Below, one piece after another: positions 5,877 to 41,073 of a stretch of DNA of 41,073 nt (the first letter of the stretch is position 1; each line of letters opens with the position of its first letter). A program made the translations under genes and the position numbers. The notes under the pieces are model-generated. The model was not told the origin of the DNA. It saw nothing but the letters and a program-made list of their open reading frames with translations, and ran no database searches. The DNA comes from Planctomycetaceae bacterium (lineage in GTDB: Bacteria > Planctomycetota > Planctomycetia > Pirellulales > UBA1268). The DNA is taken from contig JBJTIE010000016.1 in the NCBI GenBank assembly GCA_046094845.1, forward strand, positions 1-41,073, given 5' to 3'.

Positions 5877-6527
5877 GTGATCGCCACAGGAGCCAATTCC
5901 CCCATGTCAGCTGACCGCCAGCCGTTGACGTCCGAAAGATTCACCGAGTACTACGCGCAGCCCAAGGCGCCGTGGGATATCGGCCGGCCGCAGACAGCAT
6001 TCGTGGCGGCGGCAGACCGCATCGGCCAGCGGGTGCTCGACATCGGCTGCGGCACGGGCGATCTGGCGATCTGGCTCGCCGAGCAGGGGCGCGCCGTGAC
6101 GGGGATCGACTTCATCGATCCGCCCCTCGCCGTGGCCCGGCAGAAGGTGGCCGACCGGGGCGTGGCGGTCACCTTCCTGCGGATGGACGCGCTCGCCGTC
6201 GGGGAGATCCCCGAACGGTTCGACGCCGTCACCGACTGTGGGCTCTTTCACACGTTCGACGACACGGGGCGTGCGGCCTACGTGCACGGGCTCACGCGGC
6301 TCCTGGAGCCGGGCGGCCGCCTGTTCCTCCTTTGCATGTCGACGGCCGAGCCGGGGACGCACGGCCCCCGCCGCGTCAGCGAGGCGGAGTTGCGAGATGC
6401 GTTTCGCGCCGGCTGGGAGATCGAATCGCTCGAACCGGCTCGGTTCGAGGTGGTGCCGGGCATCGCTGGAGCGGAGTTCAGTCCGGGGGGCGCGCATGCC
6501 TGGTTCGCCGTCATGCGCAGGGCGTGA
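5877..6527 (+). CDS. Class I SAM-dependent methyltransferase
   Basis: Motif I is VLDIGCGTGDLAIWLAEQG, followed by an acidic post-I residue (GIDF) and motifs II/III (FDAVTDCGLFH, LEPGGRLFL). The track start is GTG 5877. ATG 5904, preceded by AGGAG, is an alternative. Confidence 0.75.
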   Translation: MIATGANSPMSADRQPLTSERFTEYYAQPKAPWDIGRPQTAFVAAADRIGQRVLDIGCGTGDLAIWLAEQGRAVTGIDFIDPPLAVARQKVADRGVAVTFLRMDALAVGEIPERFDAVTDCGLFHTFDDTGRAAYVHGLTRLLEPGGRLFLLCMSTAEPGTHGPRRVSEAELRDAFRAGWEIESLEPARFEVVPGIAGAEFSPGGAHAWFAVMRRA

Positions 6528-6555
6528 CGCCGGCCGGCTGTCGGAGGTCGTGAGG

Positions 6556-7461
6556 ATGCGGCTGTTTCCCTCGGATCGCTATCCGCTTCCGCTGCCCGAC
6601 GGACACCGGTTTCCCGCCGCGAAGTATCGGCTGCTGCGACAGCGGCTCGAGGGGCACGCGGCCGCCGGCGCACCGCTCGAGTTCGTGGAACCGCATGCCG
6701 CCACCGACGACGAGCTGCTCCGCGTCCACGACCGCGGCTACGTCGGCCGCGTGCTCGGGGGACGGCTCTCGCGCGACGAGATCCGCCGCATCGGATTCCC
6801 GTGGAGCCCGCAGCTCGTGGAGAGGTCGCTGCGGAGCACCGGTGCCGCGATCGACGCCGCCGCGGCCGCGCTCGCGGACGGCGTCGCGGCGAGCCTTGCC
6901 GGCGGCACGCATCACGCCGGCACCGACTGGGGCGAGGGCTACTGCGTGTTCAATGACACGGCCGTGGCGGCTCGCGAGATGCAGGCCCGCGGCGCCGTTG
7001 CGCGGGTCTTGATCCTCGACTGCGACGTGCACCAGGGCAACGGCACGGCGGAGATCTTCACGGACGACGACACGGTGTTCACGATGTCGATTCATGGCGA
7101 GAGGAATTTCCCGCTCCGCAAATACGCCAGTTCGCTCGACGTGGGCCTCGACGACGGCACAGGGGACGACGAGTATCTGACGAAGCTCGCCGCTGCGGTC
7201 GACGAGTCGTTCGAACGGGCCCGGGCCGACCTCGTGCTCTACATCGCCGGCGCCGATCCCTATGCCGGCGACCGGCTCGGCCGGCTGGCGGTGACGAAGG
7301 CGGGGCTCGCCGCACGCGATCGAATGGTGTTCGCCGCCGCGTGGGCCGCCGGCGTGCCCGTGGCCATCGTCTGCGGCGGCGGCTACTGCCCCGACCTCGA
7401 TGCAATCGTCGACATCCACGCCGCGACGATGCTCATGGCGGCCGGGATGCCGATCGGCTGA
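6556..7461 (+). CDS. Histone deacetylase-family (AcuC/HDAC-like) amidohydrolase
   Basis: The motifs GGTHHAGTDWGEGYCVFND, LILDCDVHQGNG and GADPYAGDRLG are typical of the arginase/deacetylase fold. The start is ATG 6556, inside the longer track ORF 6238-7461. Confidence 0.85.
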   Translation: MRLFPSDRYPLPLPDGHRFPAAKYRLLRQRLEGHAAAGAPLEFVEPHAATDDELLRVHDRGYVGRVLGGRLSRDEIRRIGFPWSPQLVERSLRSTGAAIDAAAAALADGVAASLAGGTHHAGTDWGEGYCVFNDTAVAAREMQARGAVARVLILDCDVHQGNGTAEIFTDDDTVFTMSIHGERNFPLRKYASSLDVGLDDGTGDDEYLTKLAAAVDESFERARADLVLYIAGADPYAGDRLGRLAVTKAGLAARDRMVFAAAWAAGVPVAIVCGGGYCPDLDAIVDIHAATMLMAAGMPIG

Positions 7462-14434: not shown

Positions 14435-15430
14435 TCATGCCGACCGCTTGAGCGGCCGCTGCGCGGTGCGGCGGCCACGCGGACGGACGAGATCATCATG
14501 CGGCTCGTCGATGCGGAGCGTGTGGCCCGACTCTTCGCCGATCGGTGCGTCTCGCAGGTCCCGGAGCTGCCGCAGCCGGTGGACCGTGCTGCCGAACTCC
14601 GCGAGTGCGACGAGGCGGCCTGCGAGCATCGGTAGCGTGCCGAGCGGGAGCCGCGCTACCGCGTCTCGCACGCCCTCCACCAGATGCGCGGCCAATGCGG
14701 CCGTGCGGGAACCGCGGCCCAGCGACCGCCAGAACAACCGCTCCGCATACAGACCCGCGCGGAACGACCGCGGCATGCTCCGCGACGTCCCGCGGATCAC
14801 GCGACATGCCTCTTCGTAGACGACCGGGAGCGGCAGGCAGCCCAGGGCCGCGGCCATGTCGGCGTCGGCCAACGCATCGCCGCAGGCTGTCGAGAAGCCG
14901 GGGCCCGCCATGTGCAAGACGTCCGTGCGCCAGAAGCCGGCCTCGAGGATCGGCCCCGACCCAGCCGCGAGCGGCTCGTCGCCCGGCCGCGGTGCCGACA
15001 GGCCGATGCGTCTGCCGCCGCGGCCGATGCGCACGCCGGCCGGCACGCCCCGATCGTCGTCGCCGCCGGTCACCAGCGCGGGCACCACCGCCGCGATGTC
15101 CTCCGCGGCGAACCGCGCCAGCGGTCGGTCGGTCCAGCCGGGCGTTGCCCGCCAGCCGGCGGCGAGCACGTGCACCACCGGCCCCTTGCTGGCGGCGATC
15201 CCGAGATTGGTGCAGGCGACGAGGCGGGCGGACGGCGGCGCCTGGATGAACACCACCTCCTCGCGAATACCCCACGGATCGTCGTAGGGGCAGGCCAGCG
15301 GCACGATGATCTCGCAGTCGGGCGGCCGGTTTTCCAGCACGCTCACGAGCGTCTCCTCGAGCGCCGCCGTGTCGGCGACCGTCGGAATCACGATGGACAG
15401 CGCAGCCGCGCGCGTCGTCTGCCCGGACAT
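14435..15430 (-). CDS. Glycosyltransferase family 2-like protein
   Basis: From ATG 15430 the product begins MSGQTTRAAALSIVIPTVADTAALEETLVSVLENRPPDCEIIVP, which is a GT-A N-terminal signature. The Arg-rich upstream part of the track ORF is discarded. Confidence 0.55.
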   Translation of the reverse strand: MSGQTTRAAALSIVIPTVADTAALEETLVSVLENRPPDCEIIVPLACPYDDPWGIREEVVFIQAPPSARLVACTNLGIAASKGPVVHVLAAGWRATPGWTDRPLARFAAEDIAAVVPALVTGGDDDRGVPAGVRIGRGGRRIGLSAPRPGDEPLAAGSGPILEAGFWRTDVLHMAGPGFSTACGDALADADMAAALGCLPLPVVYEEACRVIRGTSRSMPRSFRAGLYAERLFWRSLGRGSRTAALAAHLVEGVRDAVARLPLGTLPMLAGRLVALAEFGSTVHRLRQLRDLRDAPIGEESGHTLRIDEPHDDLVRPRGRRTAQRPLKRSA

Positions 15431-34325: not shown

Positions 34326-34778
34326 ATGAAAGTCGTCGTGCAGCGGGTGAGCGAGGCGGGCGTGACGGTGGGCGGCGACGTCGTCGGCCAGATCGGCCGT
34401 GGTCTCCTCGTGCTCGTCGGGGTGGAGCAGGGCGACGCGGCCGCCGACGCCGACTGGCTCGCCGCCAAGATCGCGGCCTTGCGAATCTTCGCCGACGCCG
34501 AAGGGAAGATGAACCTCGCCGTCCACGAGGTCGGCGGCGAAACGCTCGTCATCAGCCAGTTCACGCTCCTGGCCGAAGCCGCGTGGGGCAACCGCCCGAG
34601 TTTCGTGCGGGCAGCCCGGCCCGAAGAGGCGGTGCCGCTCTACGAGCGGTTTCTGGCGGTTCTCGAGCCGCTCGTGGGCAAGCCCGTGGCCCGGGGGGTG
34701 TTTGCGGCAGACATGCGGGTGAGCCTGGTCAACGACGGCCCCGTGACGATCGTGATCGATTCCCGGCGGCGGGAGTGA
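34326..34778 (+). CDS. dtd: D-aminoacyl-tRNA deacylase
   Basis: The motifs [24 protein letters not shown] and NDGPVT match Dtd. Confidence 0.9.
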
Positions 34779-34907: not shown

Positions 34908-35050
34908 TGTCTTTCTCTTCCGCGCGGCCAGGCGCCCTGGCGGCTTGTAGCTCGCGTTCGTGCGGACTACGCTTCATCGGTATCGGTCAGGCCGGCGATT
35001 GAAACGCGTCAGTGGCCGGCCGATGCCTGCCCGCCTCGGAGCCTCCCGCC

Positions 35051-36463
35051 ATGCCCCGATCCCGCCGTCCCGAGTCTTGCTCCGCGCCGTATCGCTCGCG
35101 GCGGGATTTTCTCTCGGTCGCCTCCGCCGTTGCCGGCGGCTACTGGATCGCACCCGGCCTACGGGCCGACGAGGCGAAGCCTGCCACGAGCGCGAACGAG
35201 GAGATTCGGTTTGCTTGCATCGGCATCGGCGGCAAGGGGGCGAGCGATTCGGCCGACGCGGCCCGGAGCGGCAAGGTGGTGGCCGTCGCCGATGTGGATG
35301 CCAACCAACTGAAGCGGGCCCAGAAGACGCTCGAAGGGGCCAAACAATACGCCGACTTCCGGAAGATGCTCGACGAGATGGGCAAGGAATTCGACGCCGT
35401 CACTGTCAGCACGCCCGACCACACCCACATCACCGCCGCCGCCATGGCCATGCAGATGGGCAAGCACTGCTTCTGCCAAAAGCCGCTCACGCGGGCGATC
35501 TCCGACGCCAGACTCCTCGGCGAGTTGGCACGGTCGCAGAAGGTGGCCACGCAGATGGGCAATCAGGGCACGGCCGGCGACTCGCTTCGCCGAGTCGCCG
35601 CCCTCATCAAGTCTGGGGCCATCGGCGCGGTGAGCGAGGTGCACATCTGGACCAACCGGCCCGTGTGGCCGCAGGGGGGCGGCCGCCCTGAGGAAAAGCC
35701 GGTGCCACCGAACCTCGACTGGGACTGCTGGCTCGGGCCGGCTCCCGTTCGTCCGTATGCGGCAGGGTATCACCCGTTCGCCTGGCGCGGATTCTGGGAT
35801 TTCGGATCCGGCGCCCTCGGCGACATGGCCTGTCATACGTTCAACATGCCGTTCATGGCGCTCGCGCTTCGCGATCCAGCCAGCGTGCAGGCGGTCACCA
35901 GCGGCCACAACAAAGAAACCTTTCCCAAGTGGTCGATCATCGACTTCGCGTTCCCCGCGCTCGGTGACCGGCCCGCCGTCAAGGTGAAGTGGTATGACGG
36001 CGGCAAACTGCCGGATGCAGCGCTTTTCACAGGATTCCGCGGCGAGGTCGAAAAGGACGCCGATGGCAAGGAGGAGGAGCAGCCGTTCAAGACCGCCGCG
36101 AGCGGCGTGCTCGTCATCGGCGCCACGGACGTGCTCTACGCTCCCGGCGACTACTGCGAGCAGGGCCTGCAACTCAAGAGCGGCGGCACGCCGGCGGACG
36201 TCGCGTTCACGAAGTCGCCCGGTCACTTCGTGGAATTCGTCGATGCGATCAAGGGCGGTCCGGCGGCAGTGAGCAACTTCCCCGACTACGCCGCCCCGCT
36301 GACCGAGACGATCCTGCTCGGCAACCTCGCCGTCTGGGTGGCCGAGACGGCCGACGTGGCCGGCAAGAAGATCGAGTGGGATCCGGTCAAGCTCGTGGCC
36401 ACCAACGCGCCCGAGGTGGAATCGATCATTCGGCCGACGCCGCGCGACGGCTGGAAGGCATGA
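35051..36463 (+). CDS. Gfo/Idh/MocA-family oxidoreductase with a twin-arginine (TAT) signal
   Basis: The TAT-like motif is SRRDFLSVASAVAGG. The Rossmann motif is IRFACIGIGGKGASD. VSTPDHTH and KHCFCQKPL are also present. Confidence 0.8.
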   Translation: MPRSRRPESCSAPYRSRRDFLSVASAVAGGYWIAPGLRADEAKPATSANEEIRFACIGIGGKGASDSADAARSGKVVAVADVDANQLKRAQKTLEGAKQYADFRKMLDEMGKEFDAVTVSTPDHTHITAAAMAMQMGKHCFCQKPLTRAISDARLLGELARSQKVATQMGNQGTAGDSLRRVAALIKSGAIGAVSEVHIWTNRPVWPQGGGRPEEKPVPPNLDWDCWLGPAPVRPYAAGYHPFAWRGFWDFGSGALGDMACHTFNMPFMALALRDPASVQAVTSGHNKETFPKWSIIDFAFPALGDRPAVKVKWYDGGKLPDAALFTGFRGEVEKDADGKEEEQPFKTAASGVLVIGATDVLYAPGDYCEQGLQLKSGGTPADVAFTKSPGHFVEFVDAIKGGPAAVSNFPDYAAPLTETILLGNLAVWVAETADVAGKKIEWDPVKLVATNAPEVESIIRPTPRDGWKA

Positions 36464-37773
36464 GCGAGGAGGTCGTGATAAGGATGCTCCGCCGCACGGA
36501 CGCTCTGCGCACGGTGAGCCGCATCCTCGTGGCGATGCCGCTGGCCGCCGCGCTCTGTGTCCTGCCGGGGGCCGCCCGTGCCATCTCTCCTGCAGCCGCC
36601 GATACCGAAGCGGTTGCCCTGGTCAAGGCCCGCGGCGGAAAAGCATCGCTCGATGCGGCAGGCCATGTGGTGACGGTCGATCTCGCGCAGCGGCCGGCGA
36701 CCGACGCCGATCTCGAAGTGCTGGCGGGGCTCGAGGGCCTGAAGAAGCTCGAGGTCTGGGGGGCGGAGATTTCCGATCGGGGCCTCGCTGCGATCGCGAC
36801 GATGAAGAATCTCGAGCAGCTCGTCCTCGAGAACACCGACGTGACCGACGCCGGAGCAGCCCGGCTCGCGGGGCTCGAGAACCTGCGGGTGCTGAATCTT
36901 CGGCGGTCGTCGAATCTCACCGACGCCGCGCTCGAGGCGGTGGCGTCGATCCGCGGACTCGAGCAGCTGATCCTGCTCTACAACAACTTCACCGACGCCG
37001 GTCTCGCCCATCTCGCACCGCTGGAGAAGCTCCGCGTGCTCGACCTTCGGGGCTGCGCCCTCGTGACGGACTCCGGCCTCGAGCATGTGGCGAAGCTGAC
37101 CAGCCTCGAGCGGGTGAAGCTCCGCTGCCCGAGTGTCACCGACGCCGGCCTCGCGCATGTCGCGATGCTGCCGAAGCTCCGCGGCTTCGCGGTCGAGGAC
37201 GGCCAGGTGACCGACGCGGGGCTCGCGCCGTTCGCCGACAAGACCGAGATCGACGAGATCAACGTCATGCGGACGTTCGTGGGAGACGATGGCCTTGCCC
37301 ACCTCGTGAAGCTCACGAAGCTCAAGCGGCTCGAATTGCGGGGCACGCTCGTGGGCGACGCGGGCCTCGCGCACGTCGGGAAGCTGCCGAACCTCGTGCT
37401 CCTCGATCTTGCCGAGACGAGTGTCGGCGACGCGGGCGTGGCCCAACTGGCCGGCCTGCAGAAGCTCGTGACGCTCGACCTCTGGGACACGAAGGTCGGC
37501 GACGCGGGCATGGAAGTGGTCGGCAGGCTCGCGACCCTCGGCACGCTGAACCTGCAGAACACGGCGGTGACCGACGTCGGCGTCGCGCGGCTGGTCGGCC
37601 TCGGCTCACTCGTCAGCCTCACGCTCACCGGCACCACGATCACCGATGCCGCCCTCGACGCCCTCGCGAAGCTGCCGGCTCTCCGCTCGCTGGCCCTCGC
37701 CTTCACCGCGGTCACCGACGCCGGCGTCGCCCGGTTCTCCCAGGCCCGCCCACAGCTCACCGTCAGTCGGTAG
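36460..37773 (+). CDS. Secreted leucine-rich repeat protein (RNI-like ~24-residue repeats)
   Basis: The signal-like N-terminus reads RILVAMPLAAALCVLPGAARA. At least 14 repeats of the form L..L..L.L....VTDAGLAHLA.L follow. The ATGA overlap with the preceding gene suggests coupling. ATG 36484 is an alternative start. Confidence 0.75.
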   Translation: MSEEVVIRMLRRTDALRTVSRILVAMPLAAALCVLPGAARAISPAAADTEAVALVKARGGKASLDAAGHVVTVDLAQRPATDADLEVLAGLEGLKKLEVWGAEISDRGLAAIATMKNLEQLVLENTDVTDAGAARLAGLENLRVLNLRRSSNLTDAALEAVASIRGLEQLILLYNNFTDAGLAHLAPLEKLRVLDLRGCALVTDSGLEHVAKLTSLERVKLRCPSVTDAGLAHVAMLPKLRGFAVEDGQVTDAGLAPFADKTEIDEINVMRTFVGDDGLAHLVKLTKLKRLELRGTLVGDAGLAHVGKLPNLVLLDLAETSVGDAGVAQLAGLQKLVTLDLWDTKVGDAGMEVVGRLATLGTLNLQNTAVTDVGVARLVGLGSLVSLTLTGTTITDAALDALAKLPALRSLALAFTAVTDAGVARFSQARPQLTVSR

Positions 37774-37782
37774 CGTGGGTGA

Positions 37783-37849
37783 CCTGTAGCCGCAGATTGG
37801 TAATCTGCGGTCAGTGACCGTGTGCAGATTGCCAATCTGCACCTACAGG
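37783..37849. promoter_or_regulatory. Paired palindromes (candidate operator pair or structured terminator)
   Basis: The segment reads CCTGTAG-[CCGCAGATTGGTAATCTGCGG, 37790-37810]-11 nt-[GTGCAGATTGCCAATCTGCAC, 37822-37842]-CTACAGG. Each core, GCAGATT-N3-AATCTGC, is a perfect 7-3-7 palindrome. The centres are 32 bp apart. Confidence 0.6.
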
Positions 37850-37883
37850 CGGGGTAGAGTCTGGCCACGTCTCTGCGGGCTGA

Positions 37884-37912
37884 TTGACGCCGCCCCTCGG
37901 CAGCGGTATCAC
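37884..37912 (+). promoter_or_regulatory. Possible sigma70-type promoter for the pspA operon
   Basis: The pattern is TTGACG-N17-TATCAC, about 70 nt upstream of pspA ATG 37985. This is pattern only, and promoter consensus in this lineage is uncertain. Confidence 0.25.
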
Positions 37913-37984
37913 GACGCAGCAGGCGGCAGTGGTTTCTGGCCGCCGATTCACATTCACCGGCCCGTCCTGCGGAGACTTTGAGCC

Positions 37985-38737
37985 ATGATCCTGGGGAAGC
38001 TGTGGAAGGCCCTTGCGGCCCAGATGAACAAGGTCGCCAACTTCTTCTGGACGGCCGATCCGATCGCCCAGCTCCAGTACGAGTACGACAAGGCCGTCGA
38101 CCAGATGAAGGAAGGCCGCGAGGGGCTCGAGCAGTATCGGGCCCTCGTCGAGCGGGTGACCCGCCAAGTGAACGGCGACCGGCAGCACGTCGAGTCGCTC
38201 GAGGCGAGGATCAAGGCCTATCTCCAGGCGGGCGAGCGGGAAACCGCGTCGAAGTTCGCCCTCGAATTGCAGAAGGCCAAGAAGGAACTGGCCGAGAACG
38301 AGGCCCAGCTCAAGCTGCACGAGACGGCCTACGACAACAACGTCACCAAGATCAAGCACGCCACGAAGAAACTCGCCGACCTCAAGCAGAAGATCCAGAA
38401 GTACGACGCCGAGTTGAAGCTCTCCCGCGCCGAGGCCGAGTTGGCCAAGCTCGCGCAGTCGTTCAACTTCGACATCACGACCGACTTCGGCCAGATCGAG
38501 GACGTGATCCAGGACAAGATCGGACTCAATCGGGCCAAGGTGCGGGTGGCGGCCGACCTCTCGGGCGAGGGCCTGGAGACGATCAAGCAGGAAGCGGCGG
38601 TGGAGAAGGCGATGGCCGACAAGGCGCTCCGCGAGTTCGAGATCGAGATGGGGATGGTGACGCCCGAGACGGCCGGCGTGTCGGCGGACGACAAGGAACT
38701 GGGCACGGAGCGGGCCCGGCAGACCCAGGGCGGCTGA
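37985..38737 (+). CDS. pspA: PspA/IM30 (Vipp1/LiaH) family protein, ESCRT-III fold
   Basis: It has an N-terminal amphipathic helix (MILGKLWKALAAQMNKVANFF) and the PspA_IM30 pattern DPIAQLQYEYDKAVDQMKEGREGL. Long heptad coiled coils run through about residue 200. The product is 250 aa with an acidic C-terminal tail. Confidence 0.85.
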   Translation: MILGKLWKALAAQMNKVANFFWTADPIAQLQYEYDKAVDQMKEGREGLEQYRALVERVTRQVNGDRQHVESLEARIKAYLQAGERETASKFALELQKAKKELAENEAQLKLHETAYDNNVTKIKHATKKLADLKQKIQKYDAELKLSRAEAELAKLAQSFNFDITTDFGQIEDVIQDKIGLNRAKVRVAADLSGEGLETIKQEAAVEKAMADKALREFEIEMGMVTPETAGVSADDKELGTERARQTQGG

Positions 38738-38758
38738 CGTCGCCAGCGAGGGGAGTCC

Positions 38759-40630
38759 GTGACCACACCAGCCAGCCACAATGATGCGGTGCCGGGAGGC
38801 GGGAGCCTGGGCGCTGCTGCGCCCGCTGCGACAGCCTCCGTTGCGCTCCCGGCCGCCGCGCTCCCGGATTGGTGTCCGGCCTGGGCAGAACGCCTCGGCG
38901 ACGCCTACCTCTCCGGCACGAGTTGCGTGTTCATGCTCCACGGCAACGTGCGGGACCTCGTGCCGGTGGCTGCCCCCGCGGCGGCCGGCCGCGACGACGT
39001 GGCCGCCTGGGGCACCGCGCCCGACTTCCTCGCCCGCGAAATGTTCGGCCGCTGGGACATCGTGCTGGCCTACGACGTTGGCAAGGGCCTGCGGCCGCTC
39101 GCCGGGCCCGATCCCGCCCGCCTGCGGACGATGGCCCAGTGGCTGACGGAGCGGCTGGGCAACGCGGCCAACTGGCCGCGGGATCCGGACCAGGCGATCG
39201 CCGCGATCGATGCCATCTTCGAACGCAATCTGATCGACCCGCCCGAGCAGCGGAAGCGGATCGCGGTCGTGCTCGACTACGCCCAGTATCTCGCTCCCGC
39301 AGGTGAGGCCTCGGCCGGGTCGCGGGCAGGGGCGGGGCGGCTCGTGCGGATCCTGGGCTGGGCCTCCAATCCGCTCCTGCGGCGGGTGAACGTGGCCGTC
39401 GTGATGCTCGCCGATACGCTGGCCGAGGTGCACCCGCGGCTGGCGACGAATCCGGCCGTGACCGCCATCGACCTGCCGCTTCCCGATGCGGCCGAGCGGG
39501 AGCGGTTCGCGCTGGCCACGGCGGCCGCAGCCGGGATGCCCGCCGACCGCTTGGATGGTGTCAAACGGGTTGCCGCGCTCTCCGGCGGTCTCACGCTCGA
39601 GAGTCTCCGCGCGGTGATCGCCCTCTCGGCCCGTGAGGGCACACCTCCGGACGGGCCCGAGTTCGCAGCCCGCAAGAAGGACATGATCGAGCGGTCGTGC
39701 CAGGGGCTCGTCGAATTCATCCAGCCGCGGCTCACGCTCGACGCCGTGGCGGGCCATGAGGCGGCGAAGGCCAGACTCCAGGCCGATGCCCGGGCGATTC
39801 AGCGGGGGCAACTCGAAAGCGCTCCGATGGGCTATCTCATCTGCGGCCCCGTGGGCACCGGCAAGAGCTTCATCGCCGAATGCTACTCCGGCAGCGTGGG
39901 GATCCCCTGCGCCGTGCTCAAGAACTTCCGCAGCAAGTACGTCGGCGAGACCGAGGGCAACCTCGAGCACGCCCTCGACGTGCTCCGCAGCCTCGGGCCC
40001 GTGGTCGTGATCATCGACGAGGCCGACGCCGCCCTCGGCAACCGCGACCAGGGGGGCGACTCCGGCACGAGTGCCCGCGTGTTCTCGATGATCGCACGGC
40101 AGATGGGGGACACCCGCTACCGCGGCAAGATCGTGTGGATGCTGCTCACCAGCCGCCCCGATCTCCTGCCGATCGACCTCAAGCGGCAGGGGCGGGCCGA
40201 GGTGCACATTCCGCTCTTTTATCCGCACGACCAGGCCGAGATGGACGCGATGTTCACGGCGATGGCCCGGAAGTGTCGCGTGAAGCTCGCGCCGGGCCTG
40301 CCCGGGCCCGTCGATCTGTCGCTCGGCCTCTCCGGTGCCGACATCGAGAGCGTGGTGCTCGCGGCACGGCGGAAGGGGCTCGAGCGGGCGGCCGACGCGG
40401 GGCAGCCGCCGCCGGATACGATCTCGGCGGAGGACCTGAAGGCGGCCCTCGACGATTTCATGCCCAGCGCCCAGGGTCTCGAGAAGGAGATGCAGGAGAT
40501 CGCGGCGGTGCTCGAGTGCACCGAGAAGCGATTCCTGCCCGACCGCTGGAAAGACAAGGTAAACGAGCCGGGCGGGCGTTCCCGCCTGCAGGAACGGCTC
40601 GCGGCGATTCGCGACGTGATCGGTTCGTGA
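38759..40630 (+). CDS. Two-module classical AAA+ ATPase (degenerate N-terminal module plus active C-terminal module)
   Basis: The C-terminal module has Walker A GPVGTGKS, SKYVGETEGNL, Walker B VVIIDEAD, a sensor-1/SRH region MLLTSRPDLLPIDLKRQGRAEVHIPL and LSGADIE. The N-terminal half has AAA-like strand order, but FMLHGNVRDL replaces the P-loop and VVLDYAQ is Walker-B-like. The start is GTG 38759, 21 nt after the pspA stop. Confidence 0.85.
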   Translation: MTTPASHNDAVPGGGSLGAAAPAATASVALPAAALPDWCPAWAERLGDAYLSGTSCVFMLHGNVRDLVPVAAPAAAGRDDVAAWGTAPDFLAREMFGRWDIVLAYDVGKGLRPLAGPDPARLRTMAQWLTERLGNAANWPRDPDQAIAAIDAIFERNLIDPPEQRKRIAVVLDYAQYLAPAGEASAGSRAGAGRLVRILGWASNPLLRRVNVAVVMLADTLAEVHPRLATNPAVTAIDLPLPDAAERERFALATAAAAGMPADRLDGVKRVAALSGGLTLESLRAVIALSAREGTPPDGPEFAARKKDMIERSCQGLVEFIQPRLTLDAVAGHEAAKARLQADARAIQRGQLESAPMGYLICGPVGTGKSFIAECYSGSVGIPCAVLKNFRSKYVGETEGNLEHALDVLRSLGPVVVIIDEADAALGNRDQGGDSGTSARVFSMIARQMGDTRYRGKIVWMLLTSRPDLLPIDLKRQGRAEVHIPLFYPHDQAEMDAMFTAMARKCRVKLAPGLPGPVDLSLGLSGADIESVVLAARRKGLERAADAGQPPPDTISAEDLKAALDDFMPSAQGLEKEMQEIAAVLECTEKRFLPDRWKDKVNEPGGRSRLQERLAAIRDVIGS

Positions 40631-40653
40631 CGACACCCCTGAAGGAGACACTC

Positions 40654-40959
40654 ATGGCCAAGGCAGCCGCCGGCAAGACCCCCTGGTTCGACGACGCGAG
40701 CGACGCCCCCATGCTCGCGGAGTATGCCCGCAAGCTCGACTCGTTTCTCGACGCCGTCGCCGACGGGCGAATCGATTCGAAGGAACTCGACGCCCAGGAG
40801 AAGCGGGTCGTGAACCTGATGAAGCAGGTCGAGCCGCATCTCTCGGCCGAGGCCCACGAGCTCGTGACGCAGCTCCTGTGCGAAGTGACGGCCTATGACC
40901 TCATGAACGCCATGCACATGGCGGGCAAGGCACGGCCGGCGACGAAGTTTCGCGGCTGA
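40654..40959 (+). CDS. Small helical hypothetical protein (101 aa), third gene of the pspA-AAA operon
   Basis: GAAGGAG lies 6 nt upstream of ATG 40654, and the start is 23 nt after the AAA gene stop. The product is predicted to be all-helical by composition. The motif AVADGRIDSKELDAQEKRVV is faintly TerB-like. Confidence 0.5.
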   Translation: MAKAAAGKTPWFDDASDAPMLAEYARKLDSFLDAVADGRIDSKELDAQEKRVVNLMKQVEPHLSAEAHELVTQLLCEVTAYDLMNAMHMAGKARPATKFRG

Positions 40960-41030
40960 ACCCGCATTCCCCCTATCCCCCGAGGCGAGGCGTTGATCCA
41001 TGGCGAGTGAACCGAAGGCTCCGTTCTGGC

Positions 41031-41073
41031 TGGCGTTCATGAGGTCATAGGCCGTCACTTCGCACAGGAGCTG
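41031..41073. repeat. Right arm of a 43-bp perfect inverted repeat (left arm 40870-40912), reaching the window edge
   Basis: The reverse complement of 41031-41073 is identical to 40870-40912 (CAGCTCCTGTGCGAAGTGACGGCCTATGACCTCATGAACGCCA). The left arm lies inside the small CDS. Confidence 0.85.

Follow-up and report, generated by a model that had tools for sequence, protein, structure and literature searches.

What remodels or disassembles the polymers of the bacterial ESCRT-III proteins PspA and Vipp1? This question is raised by three adjacent genes located at the end of a 41,073-nucleotide (nt) stretch of DNA of Planctomycetaceae bacterium (assembly GCA_046094845.1, contig JBJTIE010000016.1, positions 1 to 41,073 of the forward strand), hereafter referred to as the window, which encode a PspA/IM30 protein, a tandem classical AAA ATPase and a small protein designated g3. 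According to a 2025 review, a Vps4-like ATPase appears to be absent in bacteria (PMC7619361), and a structural paper of 2024 considers, for PspA remodelling, only intrinsic ATP hydrolysis, chaperones or PspF (PMC11746142). Our analysis revealed that the window locus adds one more member, distinguished by its rearranged gene order, to a neighbourhood class already published with the same functional hypothesis. This class, 'PspA + inactive-classical-AAA + classical-AAA', was described by Ravi et al. (mSystems 2024; PMC11237479), who proposed for it 'ATP-dependent membrane remodeling ... comparable to Snf7 and VPS4'. A preliminary description of the three genes, made from the sequence alone, had mentioned surveys noting PspA-AAA+ neighbourhoods; this was correct, and Ravi et al. 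draw the same Vps4 analogy. Since the idea has been published as a computational prediction, the locus is valuable as another well-defined member and not as a discovery.

The window trio forms the 5′ portion of an envelope cassette that is conserved and comprises seven genes in relatives. PspA is the most constant partner of this ATPase subfamily, because the pair survives both gene-order rearrangement and operon turnover, and the constancy of this partner is the strongest available evidence for a putative direct functional link between the two proteins. We estimate a probability of roughly 50% that the ATPase threads or remodels PspA as an analogue of Vps4, with g3 as an adaptor and with triggers in the cell envelope. 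The present study adds (i) the seven-gene anatomy of the cassette with its two gene orders, (ii) g3 as a constant partner, (iii) the persistence of the PspA-AAA dyad across three operon contexts, (iv) a non-canonical sensor-1 position and (v) the artefactual nature of the window end.

The features of the locus within the window are as follows (aa, amino acids; ORF, open reading frame).

37985-38737, + strand: gene 1, PspA/IM30 (ESCRT-III superfamily), 250 aa, ATG start, from the ORF map and the sequence
38759-40630, + strand: gene 2, tandem (type II) classical AAA ATPase, 623 aa, GTG start
38864-39712, + strand: D1 of gene 2, degenerate AAA domain without a nucleotide site, residues ~36-318
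39713-40558, + strand: D2 of gene 2, predicted active AAA module, residues ~319-600
39845-39868, + strand: Walker A GPVGTGKS of D2, from the sequence
40654-40959, + strand: gene 3 (g3), small conserved partner protein, 101 aa, ATG start
41000-41030, + strand: start of the fourth cassette gene, first 10 codons, N-terminus of a solute-binding/OmpA protein
41031-41073, no strand assigned: terminal inverted repeat, 43 nt, 100% complementary to 40870-40912 inside g3, with 118 nt between the arms, reaching the last base of the window
37774-37984, + strand: intergenic region upstream of pspA, 211 nt, following the ORF of a leucine-rich-repeat (LRR) protein that ends at 37773, with GGAG ~11 nt before the pspA start

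The three co-directional ORFs of the preliminary description, each said to have a purine-rich ribosome-binding site of its own, were recovered with exactly matching coordinates and spacing: gaps of 21 nt (genes 1 and 2) and 23 nt (genes 2 and 3), and purine-rich stretches GGAG, GAGGGGAG and GAAGGAG placed 4-11 nt 5′ of the starts of genes 1, 2 and 3, respectively. The view of the three genes as a self-contained operon had to be abandoned, given the fourth gene starting at 41000 and the seven-gene cassette of the relatives, which includes an ATP-binding cassette (ABC) importer.

The full cassette was obtained from a longer metagenomic contig (L001), which encodes a homologue 83% identical to the window ATPase. 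It carries seven co-directional, closely spaced genes (TM, transmembrane).

Gene 1: PspA (ESCRT-III superfamily)
Gene 2: tandem AAA ATPase
Gene 3: protein of 97 aa, 73% identical to g3 of the window
Gene 4: protein of 581 aa, anchored in the inner membrane by an N-terminal TM segment, with an NMT1/SsuA-like domain for solute binding and, at the C-terminus, an OmpA-like domain for peptidoglycan binding (PBP/OmpA)
Gene 5: TauC/SaoP-like (NitT/TauT-type) ABC permease
Gene 6: TauB/SaoA-like ABC ATPase
Gene 7: protein of 280 aa, with two N-terminal TM helices followed by a long cytoplasmic coiled coil

A scan of one genome per GTDB species with two peptide patterns, derived from a 14-sequence alignment of the ATPase, identified at least 595 loci encoding a relative of this protein. 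Conservation was counted in the best 80 of these (at least 595) loci, a sample biased towards close relatives (48% identity or more), in which ORFs were called and the seven cassette proteins were tracked by iterated hidden Markov models. Two gene orders were distinguished. In order A, found in nearly all loci of Planctomycetota, the genes encode PspA, AAA, g3, PBP/OmpA, permease, ABC ATPase and TM coiled-coil protein, whilst order B runs PspA, PBP/OmpA, permease, ABC ATPase, TM coiled-coil protein, AAA and g3. The latter is carried by loci labelled Myxococcales, Nannocystaceae, Acidobacteria and Gemmatimonadaceae, as well as by one metagenome-assembled genome (MAG) of Planctomycetota, and the two orders together span Planctomycetota, Myxococcota, Acidobacteriota and Gemmatimonadota.

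The gene located directly 5′ of the AAA gene is pspA in 58 of the 67 loci with at least 1.5 kb of upstream sequence; in 7 of these 67 it is the coiled-coil gene, PspA then heading the cassette. The AAA gene is followed by g3 in 69/74 loci with at least 600 bp of downstream sequence. Where at least 7 kb was available on both sides (30 loci), PspA was present in 29, the transporter in 19 and the coiled-coil protein likewise in 19. In some lineages, e.g. Fuerstiella and Singulisphaera, PspA-AAA-g3 stand alone at the locus.

Four more distant relatives extend this picture. A protein sharing 32% identity with the window ATPase (P0192; L084) forms a bare PspA-AAA dyad. Another (P0183; L088; 34% identity) is encoded by the last gene of an operon comprising genes for a 313-aa protein, a homologue of the TM coiled-coil protein (hhalign probability 99.7%, E 9e-27), PBP/OmpA, a VWA protein, PspA and AAA; this variant cassette (positions 2955-9725 of L088) is devoid of the ABC permease, the ABC ATPase and g3, and it suggests a conserved core composed of PspA, AAA, TM coiled-coil protein and PBP/OmpA. 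PspA is absent from the remaining two loci: P0263 (L085/L086; 27-29% identity) adjoins a ClpB-like gene, and P0243 (L083; 28-29% identity) is placed in a phage- or plasmid-like gene string, from which it follows that the tandem AAA family has also been recruited to other systems. This string (positions 1-9970 of L083) consists of ~20 short co-directional genes, including those for ParB_N, a T5orf172/MUG113 nuclease-like protein, a SpoU methylase and an ABC ATPase. The PspA-AAA adjacency, which the preliminary description wished to see beyond a single genome, therefore holds across phyla and in three operon contexts. The next most persistent partners are the TM coiled-coil and PBP/OmpA proteins.

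No similarity of the TM coiled-coil protein to Snf7 or PspA was detected by Pfam (20 members), by a profile search of the PDB or by hhalign against the PspA family. The two families share a C-terminal pattern, [AT][LM]xE[FL][EQ]xxxG[LM], in the form ALxEFExExGL in PspA and TMxELQxxTGL in the TM coiled-coil protein. It is found in the window at 38627-38656 (ALREFEIEMG of PspA) and in L001 at about 14597-14640 (C-terminus of the coiled-coil protein), and was the sole segment aligned between the two families by hhalign, at an insignificant probability of 0.3%. The pattern could be due to chance or could constitute a common motif recognized by the ATPase.

The detailed inspection of the ATPase concerned first its overall architecture. 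The AlphaFold2 model, built on an alignment of 45 diverse members, has a mean predicted local distance difference test score (pLDDT) of 91.6 and a predicted TM-score (pTM) of 0.88; residues 1-35 are predicted to be disordered (pLDDT <50). With Foldseek, 570-610 columns of this model were aligned to the D1-D2 domains of Cdc48, p97, Rix7 and NVL (E about 1e-19 to 1e-20), including 568 aligned columns with Cdc48 chain 8ub4_A (E 6e-20, TM-score 0.52/0.58). The closest solved sequences are those of Cdc48, p97, Afg2 and Rix7 (best E about 1e-29). Exhaustive profile-free searching defined a family of 757 representatives (50% clusters) at E<1e-30, with full-length two-part homologues down to ~28% identity. 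The model thus presents the protein as a type II classical AAA ATPase, composed of a D1 lacking a nucleotide site and a D2 predicted to be catalytically intact.

The first ~330 residues do not constitute a novel recognition domain. Both Foldseek and hhalign instead reveal a degenerate AAA domain: the profiles of the N-terminal and C-terminal halves of the protein align over 227 columns with a probability of 96.6% (E 6e-10). In the 45-member alignment, D1 displays hLHGNxxDL at the P-loop position, hhhDYAE at that of Walker B (VVLDYAQ in the window ATPase) and PxPDxxER before a lid-like segment, and the motif GxxxxGK[ST] is absent from the D1 P-loop position in all 126 of the family members compared. 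The preliminary description recognised no MIT domain, and this agrees with Pfam, in which the ATPase has no MIT match, and with Foldseek, the N-terminal ~320 residues being the degenerate AAA domain. Since D1 begins at ~residue 40 and residues 1-35 are disordered, there is no room for an N-domain of the Cdc48 type, which is thereby excluded.

The Pfam AAA match (residues 360-485, 72.6 bits) falls within D2. All of the motifs initially listed for gene 2 (GPVGTGKS, KYVGETEGNL, VVIIDEAD and LKRQGRAEV) were found, and an alignment with D1 and D2 of Cdc48 assigned to D2 the pore loop KYVG, the Walker B motif IIDEAD and the arginine fingers R476 and R479. All 126 members (126/126) retain the Lys of Walker A, the Asp-Glu of Walker B, the two arginine fingers and the aromatic-x-Gly of the pore loop. 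The sensor-1 position is non-canonical, with Asn in 17 of the 126 members, Ser in 74, Cys in 18 and Ala in 16, and it is preceded by Thr in 120. In the window ATPase (T464-S465, at 40148-40153) Ser stands where the classical ATNRP has Asn. This Thr may take over the role of the Asn, or ATP hydrolysis may be regulated in an unusual manner.

The initial assignment to a Vps4/Cdc48 class stands in part. The protein is a classical AAA ATPase with a Cdc48-like tandem fold, but the family cut-offs of CDC48 and CdvC are far from being reached: NCBIfam scores, which concern the AAA core only, are 57.1 bits for CDC48 (TIGR01243; cut-off 802.65) and 39.1 bits for CdvC (NF041006; cut-off 650), PAN (45 bits) standing between these two in this crude ranking and FtsH (38 bits) after them, both as further partial matches. 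The ATPase is therefore placed outside the Vps4 family and outside the Cdc48 family. A CbbX- or SpoVK-type ATPase was also considered and rejected, as the NCBIfam scan yielded neither of these families at E <= 0.1.

The product of gene 1 matches Pfam PF04012 (PspA_IM30) with 52.1 bits (gathering cut-off 33.9), residues 1-161 covering model positions 1-159; its counterpart in L001 scores 50.5 bits. A profile of the gene 1 family aligned residues 2-211, spanning helices alpha0-alpha5, to solved chains of Synechocystis Vipp1/IM30 (sll0617) with E 2.8e-6, whilst the single sequence gave a marginal match (E 0.007). As first described, the protein has an amphipathic N-terminus, its mean hydrophobic moment over residues 2-19 being 0.475 (shuffle mean 0.215; 1.65% of shuffles reach 0.475). 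The tail, described as acidic, is only mildly so (8 D/E vs 4 K/R). The PspA proteins of this cassette type, from MAGs of Planctomycetota to Gemmatimonadota, share 53-91% aa sequence identity. They retain across phyla the N-terminal sequence MIxGKxWxAxxAQxNKLANxFW and, from Planctomycetota to Gemmatimonadota, a C-terminal motif located past helix alpha5, ALxxFExExGxxTPET...KxLGP. In one locus (L038, 6425-7233) pspA is split into two ORFs (6425-6841 and 6916-7233), which represents a frameshift, a sequencing error or a pseudogene.

The third gene had been described as encoding a 101-aa helical protein, and an AlphaFold2 model made from database homologues does predict three helices (residues 22-36, 42-62 and 65-93) with moderate confidence (pLDDT 75). 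Alignments revealed invariant residues W11 and D13, together with D37, E44 and Q48 of the motif ADGxVDxxELxxQE, as well as a C-terminal motif, RPKTxFRG, that is conserved, not invariant. None of its more than 5,600 homologues carries a Pfam domain, and all are labelled hypothetical protein with the exception of one JGI label of FliS chaperone. Searches of g3 against Pfam, NCBIfam and PADLOC gave nothing above threshold, and no known fold was recognized by a profile search of the PDB or by Foldseek (best E 4.4). By eye, ADGxVDxxE is similar to loops of the EF-hand or TerB type, a likeness that none of these searches bears out. The label of an MIT-like domain, which was considered for g3, was rejected, since no structural or sequence match supports it.

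The fourth gene of the window begins with MASEPKAPFWLA, and its MASEPKAPFW(LA) matches MA[SG]QPKAPFWLAVW of the 581-aa gene in ten relatives (L001, L003-L024 set). The relatives carry the continuing solute-binding-protein gene where the window has the inverted repeat. Because 41031-41073 is a perfect reverse complement of 40870-40912, the window end is chimeric or artefactual, and the repeat has the appearance of an assembly artefact, by fold-back or chimerism, at the contig end. Gene 4 begins just before this artefactual end, and the operon is therefore cut off in the window and not complete.

Upstream of the cassette, the window contains the D-Tyr-tRNA deacylase gene dtd (34326-34778), a gene for a Gfo/Idh/MocA oxidoreductase with a twin-arginine-like N-terminus (35012-36463) and a gene for the LRR protein (465 aa; 36376-37773). 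In L001, dtd lies directly 5′ of pspA, and the oxidoreductase and LRR genes thus constitute an insertion relative to that contig. The 211-nt intergenic region preceding pspA is presumed to be the promoter region of the cassette. Neither a sigma-70-like promoter nor an intrinsic terminator was found in 37600-41073, by a scan which covers canonical promoters only and is uninformative for a planctomycete.

The nearest homologues of the window proteins (80-96% identity) occur in MAGs named Pirellulales or Planctomycetota, and the lineage of the window is likely to be planctomycete, as had been guessed. Five contigs (L006, L011, L013, L014 and L062) encode cassette proteins 79-84% identical to those of Pirellulales MAGs, yet their records are labelled 'Candidatus Kuenenia' or 'Chitinophaga'; these labels are probably binning or taxonomic-label errors.

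In the mechanism that we propose for the cassette, PspA would polymerise on the cytoplasmic face of the inner membrane via its amphipathic N-terminal helix, as is established for the family. The ATPase would assemble into a Cdc48-like double-ring hexamer, in which structural support or docking would fall to the nucleotide-free D1 ring and motor function to the D2 ring. The latter would grip an exposed terminus of PspA, for which the C-terminal tail bearing the ALxxFExExGxxTPET...KxLGP motif is the best candidate, and would pull subunits through the pore by means of its aromatic pore loop. Such threading would extract subunits, with the result that the PspA coat would be disassembled, recycled or remodelled. 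The ATPase would then be a functional analogue of Vps4 acting on ESCRT-III, derived from a different AAA lineage and devoid of an MIT domain. Given its linkage to the ATPase subfamily, g3 may act as an adaptor or regulator of this enzyme, and the two-TM coiled-coil protein and the peptidoglycan-tethered binding protein may localise or trigger the system at the envelope. On the strength of gene linkage and conserved motifs, it is plausible that the ATPase threads PspA at the expense of ATP. A broader proposal, that the whole cassette constitutes a bacterial ESCRT-III remodelling machine, in which a Cdc48-like AAA was recruited independently of Vps4, g3 replaces MIT, and the peptidoglycan-tethered and coiled-coil proteins couple the system both to the cell wall and to a signal from a solute, is more doubtful and is advanced here tentatively.

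Several observations weigh against the threading of PspA. A recognisable ESCRT-III-binding module (MIT) was found neither in the ATPase (Pfam, Foldseek) nor in g3 (Foldseek). At sensor-1, 108/126 members have Ser, Cys or Ala where Asn is canonical, and ATP hydrolysis may be slow or differently regulated. PspA and Vipp1 themselves hydrolyse nucleotide, which modulates their polymers (PMC11746142), and an external motor is therefore not strictly required. In order B it is the coiled-coil gene, and not pspA, that the AAA gene adjoins directly or in some cases overlaps, and the coiled-coil protein could be the real substrate of the ATPase. Finally, distant members of the ATPase family (28-29% identity) occur without PspA.

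The best surviving alternative is that the ATPase is an unfoldase for membrane-protein extraction or quality control (dislocation of the Cdc48/FtsH type without a protease). It would act on the two-TM coiled-coil protein, on the ABC transporter complex or on other membrane proteins that have been damaged, and the co-expressed PspA would only seal or stabilise the membrane in the course of extraction. The proteins to which the ATPase is nearest in fold and sequence, Cdc48, p97, Afg2 and Rix7, are extractors and segregases. The contact or overlap of the AAA and coiled-coil genes in order B (e.g. L076, L077, L078 and L082) points in the same direction, as do the presence of the coiled-coil protein beside AAA in two subfamilies that are only ~34% identical and the fact that membrane stabilisation is the best-established role of PspA (PMC7619361). 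We nevertheless consider this explanation unlikely, because among the well-flanked loci PspA is more constant than the coiled-coil protein (29/30 vs 19/30), because a bare PspA-AAA dyad exists (L084), and because PspA-AAA-g3 loci devoid of the transporter are known, such as those of Fuerstiella and Singulisphaera.

A lower probability still is assigned to the ATPase being a non-threading regulator or assembly chaperone, which would keep PspA soluble and assembly-incompetent or load it on the membrane, following the logic of PspA-PspF in E. coli. In Proteobacteria, binding of PspA by the AAA+ protein PspF, with control of its assembly state, is established (PMC7619361); the non-canonical sensor-1 of most members would fit a slow hydrolysis or a cycle of the switch-like kind, and the dead D1 tier could act as a binding platform. 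The two arginine fingers, the Glu of Walker B and the aromatic-x-Gly of the pore loop are, however, conserved in 126/126 members, which is the signature of a translocating motor and not of a passive binder, and no DNA-binding or sigma-54 interaction module was found with Pfam or NCBIfam. An anti-phage defence or mobile-element system with the AAA as an IetA-like effector was rejected as highly improbable, since the matches in its favour (PADLOC IetA, 41 bits; NCBIfam IteA, 34.9 bits vs a cut-off of 510) are weak, partial, limited to the generic AAA core and far below the cut-offs, an IetS-type protease partner was not found in the cassette, and, although a distant homologue (28% identity, L083) lies among phage- or plasmid-like genes (ParB_N, T5orf172), the neighbourhoods examined (L001, L002 and the window) contain the housekeeping genes dtd, rplU and ubiD and the cassette proteins are highly conserved across relatives, with 60-90% identity for PspA, both unlike defence islands.

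With threading of PspA as the preferred reading, the locus bears directly on the question raised at the outset. PspA has stayed paired with a motor-competent classical AAA through gene-order shuffling and operon turnover, and the cassette is compact, highly conserved and widespread, which makes it a suitable test system. If the ATPase does act on PspA, the ESCRT-III/AAA partnership would have been invented convergently, and PspA, the ATPase and their 100-aa partner would provide a tractable in vitro system. Should the broader proposal hold, at least several hundred bacterial species from four or more phyla would prove to have a Vps4-type partner for ESCRT-III, contrary to the view that bacteria lack one. 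Homologous cassettes were found in MAGs of Myxococcota, a phylum that includes genetically tractable species.

Comparison with known systems begins with the canonical Psp response of Proteobacteria (PspA-PspBC-PspF), in which the effector PspA is likewise coupled to an AAA+ protein. PspF is a divergently encoded sigma-54 enhancer-binding AAA+ protein with a helix-turn-helix, whereas the window ATPase is a classical-clade protein devoid of a DNA-binding domain and encoded co-directionally with PspA. Neither PspB nor PspC is encoded in the cassette, as judged from Pfam and NCBIfam scans and from the gene content of L001. In the literature we found no experimental work on a PspA-associated classical AAA ATPase.

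The archaeal 'Halo_adaptin' loci described by Makarova et al. (2024; PMC11188069/PMC10936438), in which a PspA-like gene lies upstream of a Vps4-like ATPase without MIT, resemble the window locus in having this gene directly 5′ of an MIT-less classical AAA with Cdc48 affinities. These loci are haloarchaeal, and their ATPase carries a Cdc48/VAT-type N-domain and groups within the Vps4 tree. Their companions are winged-helix and adaptin-like proteins, in contrast to the ABC importer and OmpA-domain protein of the cassette type of the window. With Cdc48/p97/VAT and Rix7/NVL, the window ATPase shares the tandem D1-D2 fold and its best sequence matches; it differs from Cdc48/p97/VAT in being devoid of the double-psi-barrel N-domain and beta-clam, and in the complete loss of the D1 P-loop.

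The resemblance to Vps4/CdvC and ESCRT-III consists of (i) the position of a gene of the ESCRT-III superfamily beside that of a classical-clade AAA with an intact pore loop, Walker motifs and arginine fingers and (ii) the proposed logic, by which subunits would be threaded out of a membrane-bound polymer. Unlike Vps4 and CdvC, the window ATPase is without MIT, has two AAA domains instead of one and best matches Cdc48, Rix7 and Afg2 in fold and sequence, and its partner is of the PspA/Vipp1 and not of the Snf7 type.

The closest counterpart is the class of Ravi et al. (PMC11237479), exemplified by Clostridium sp. BNL1100 (AEY64320.1/AEY64321.1) and Candidatus Handelsmanbacteria (OGG56892.1). 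Going by its published description, this class combines an inactive N-terminal AAA with an active classical AAA, as does the window ATPase, and its AAA adjoins PspA, as in the window and its relatives. The extended operon given by these authors is PspA -> SIG+PBPB+OmpA -> TM permease -> ABC ATPase -> SIG+TM+'Snf7' -> AAA. An operon of this type (PBP+OmpA, permease, ABC ATPase and TM helical protein) occurs in 19/30 well-flanked relatives, whilst the window retains of it only the first 10 codons of gene 4. The TM protein was labelled 'divergent Snf7' by Ravi et al., which our sequence methods neither confirm nor refute. The Handelsmanbacteria operon corresponds exactly to order B as defined here; in the lineage of the window, by comparison, the AAA-g3 pair has moved to a position directly behind pspA, giving order A.

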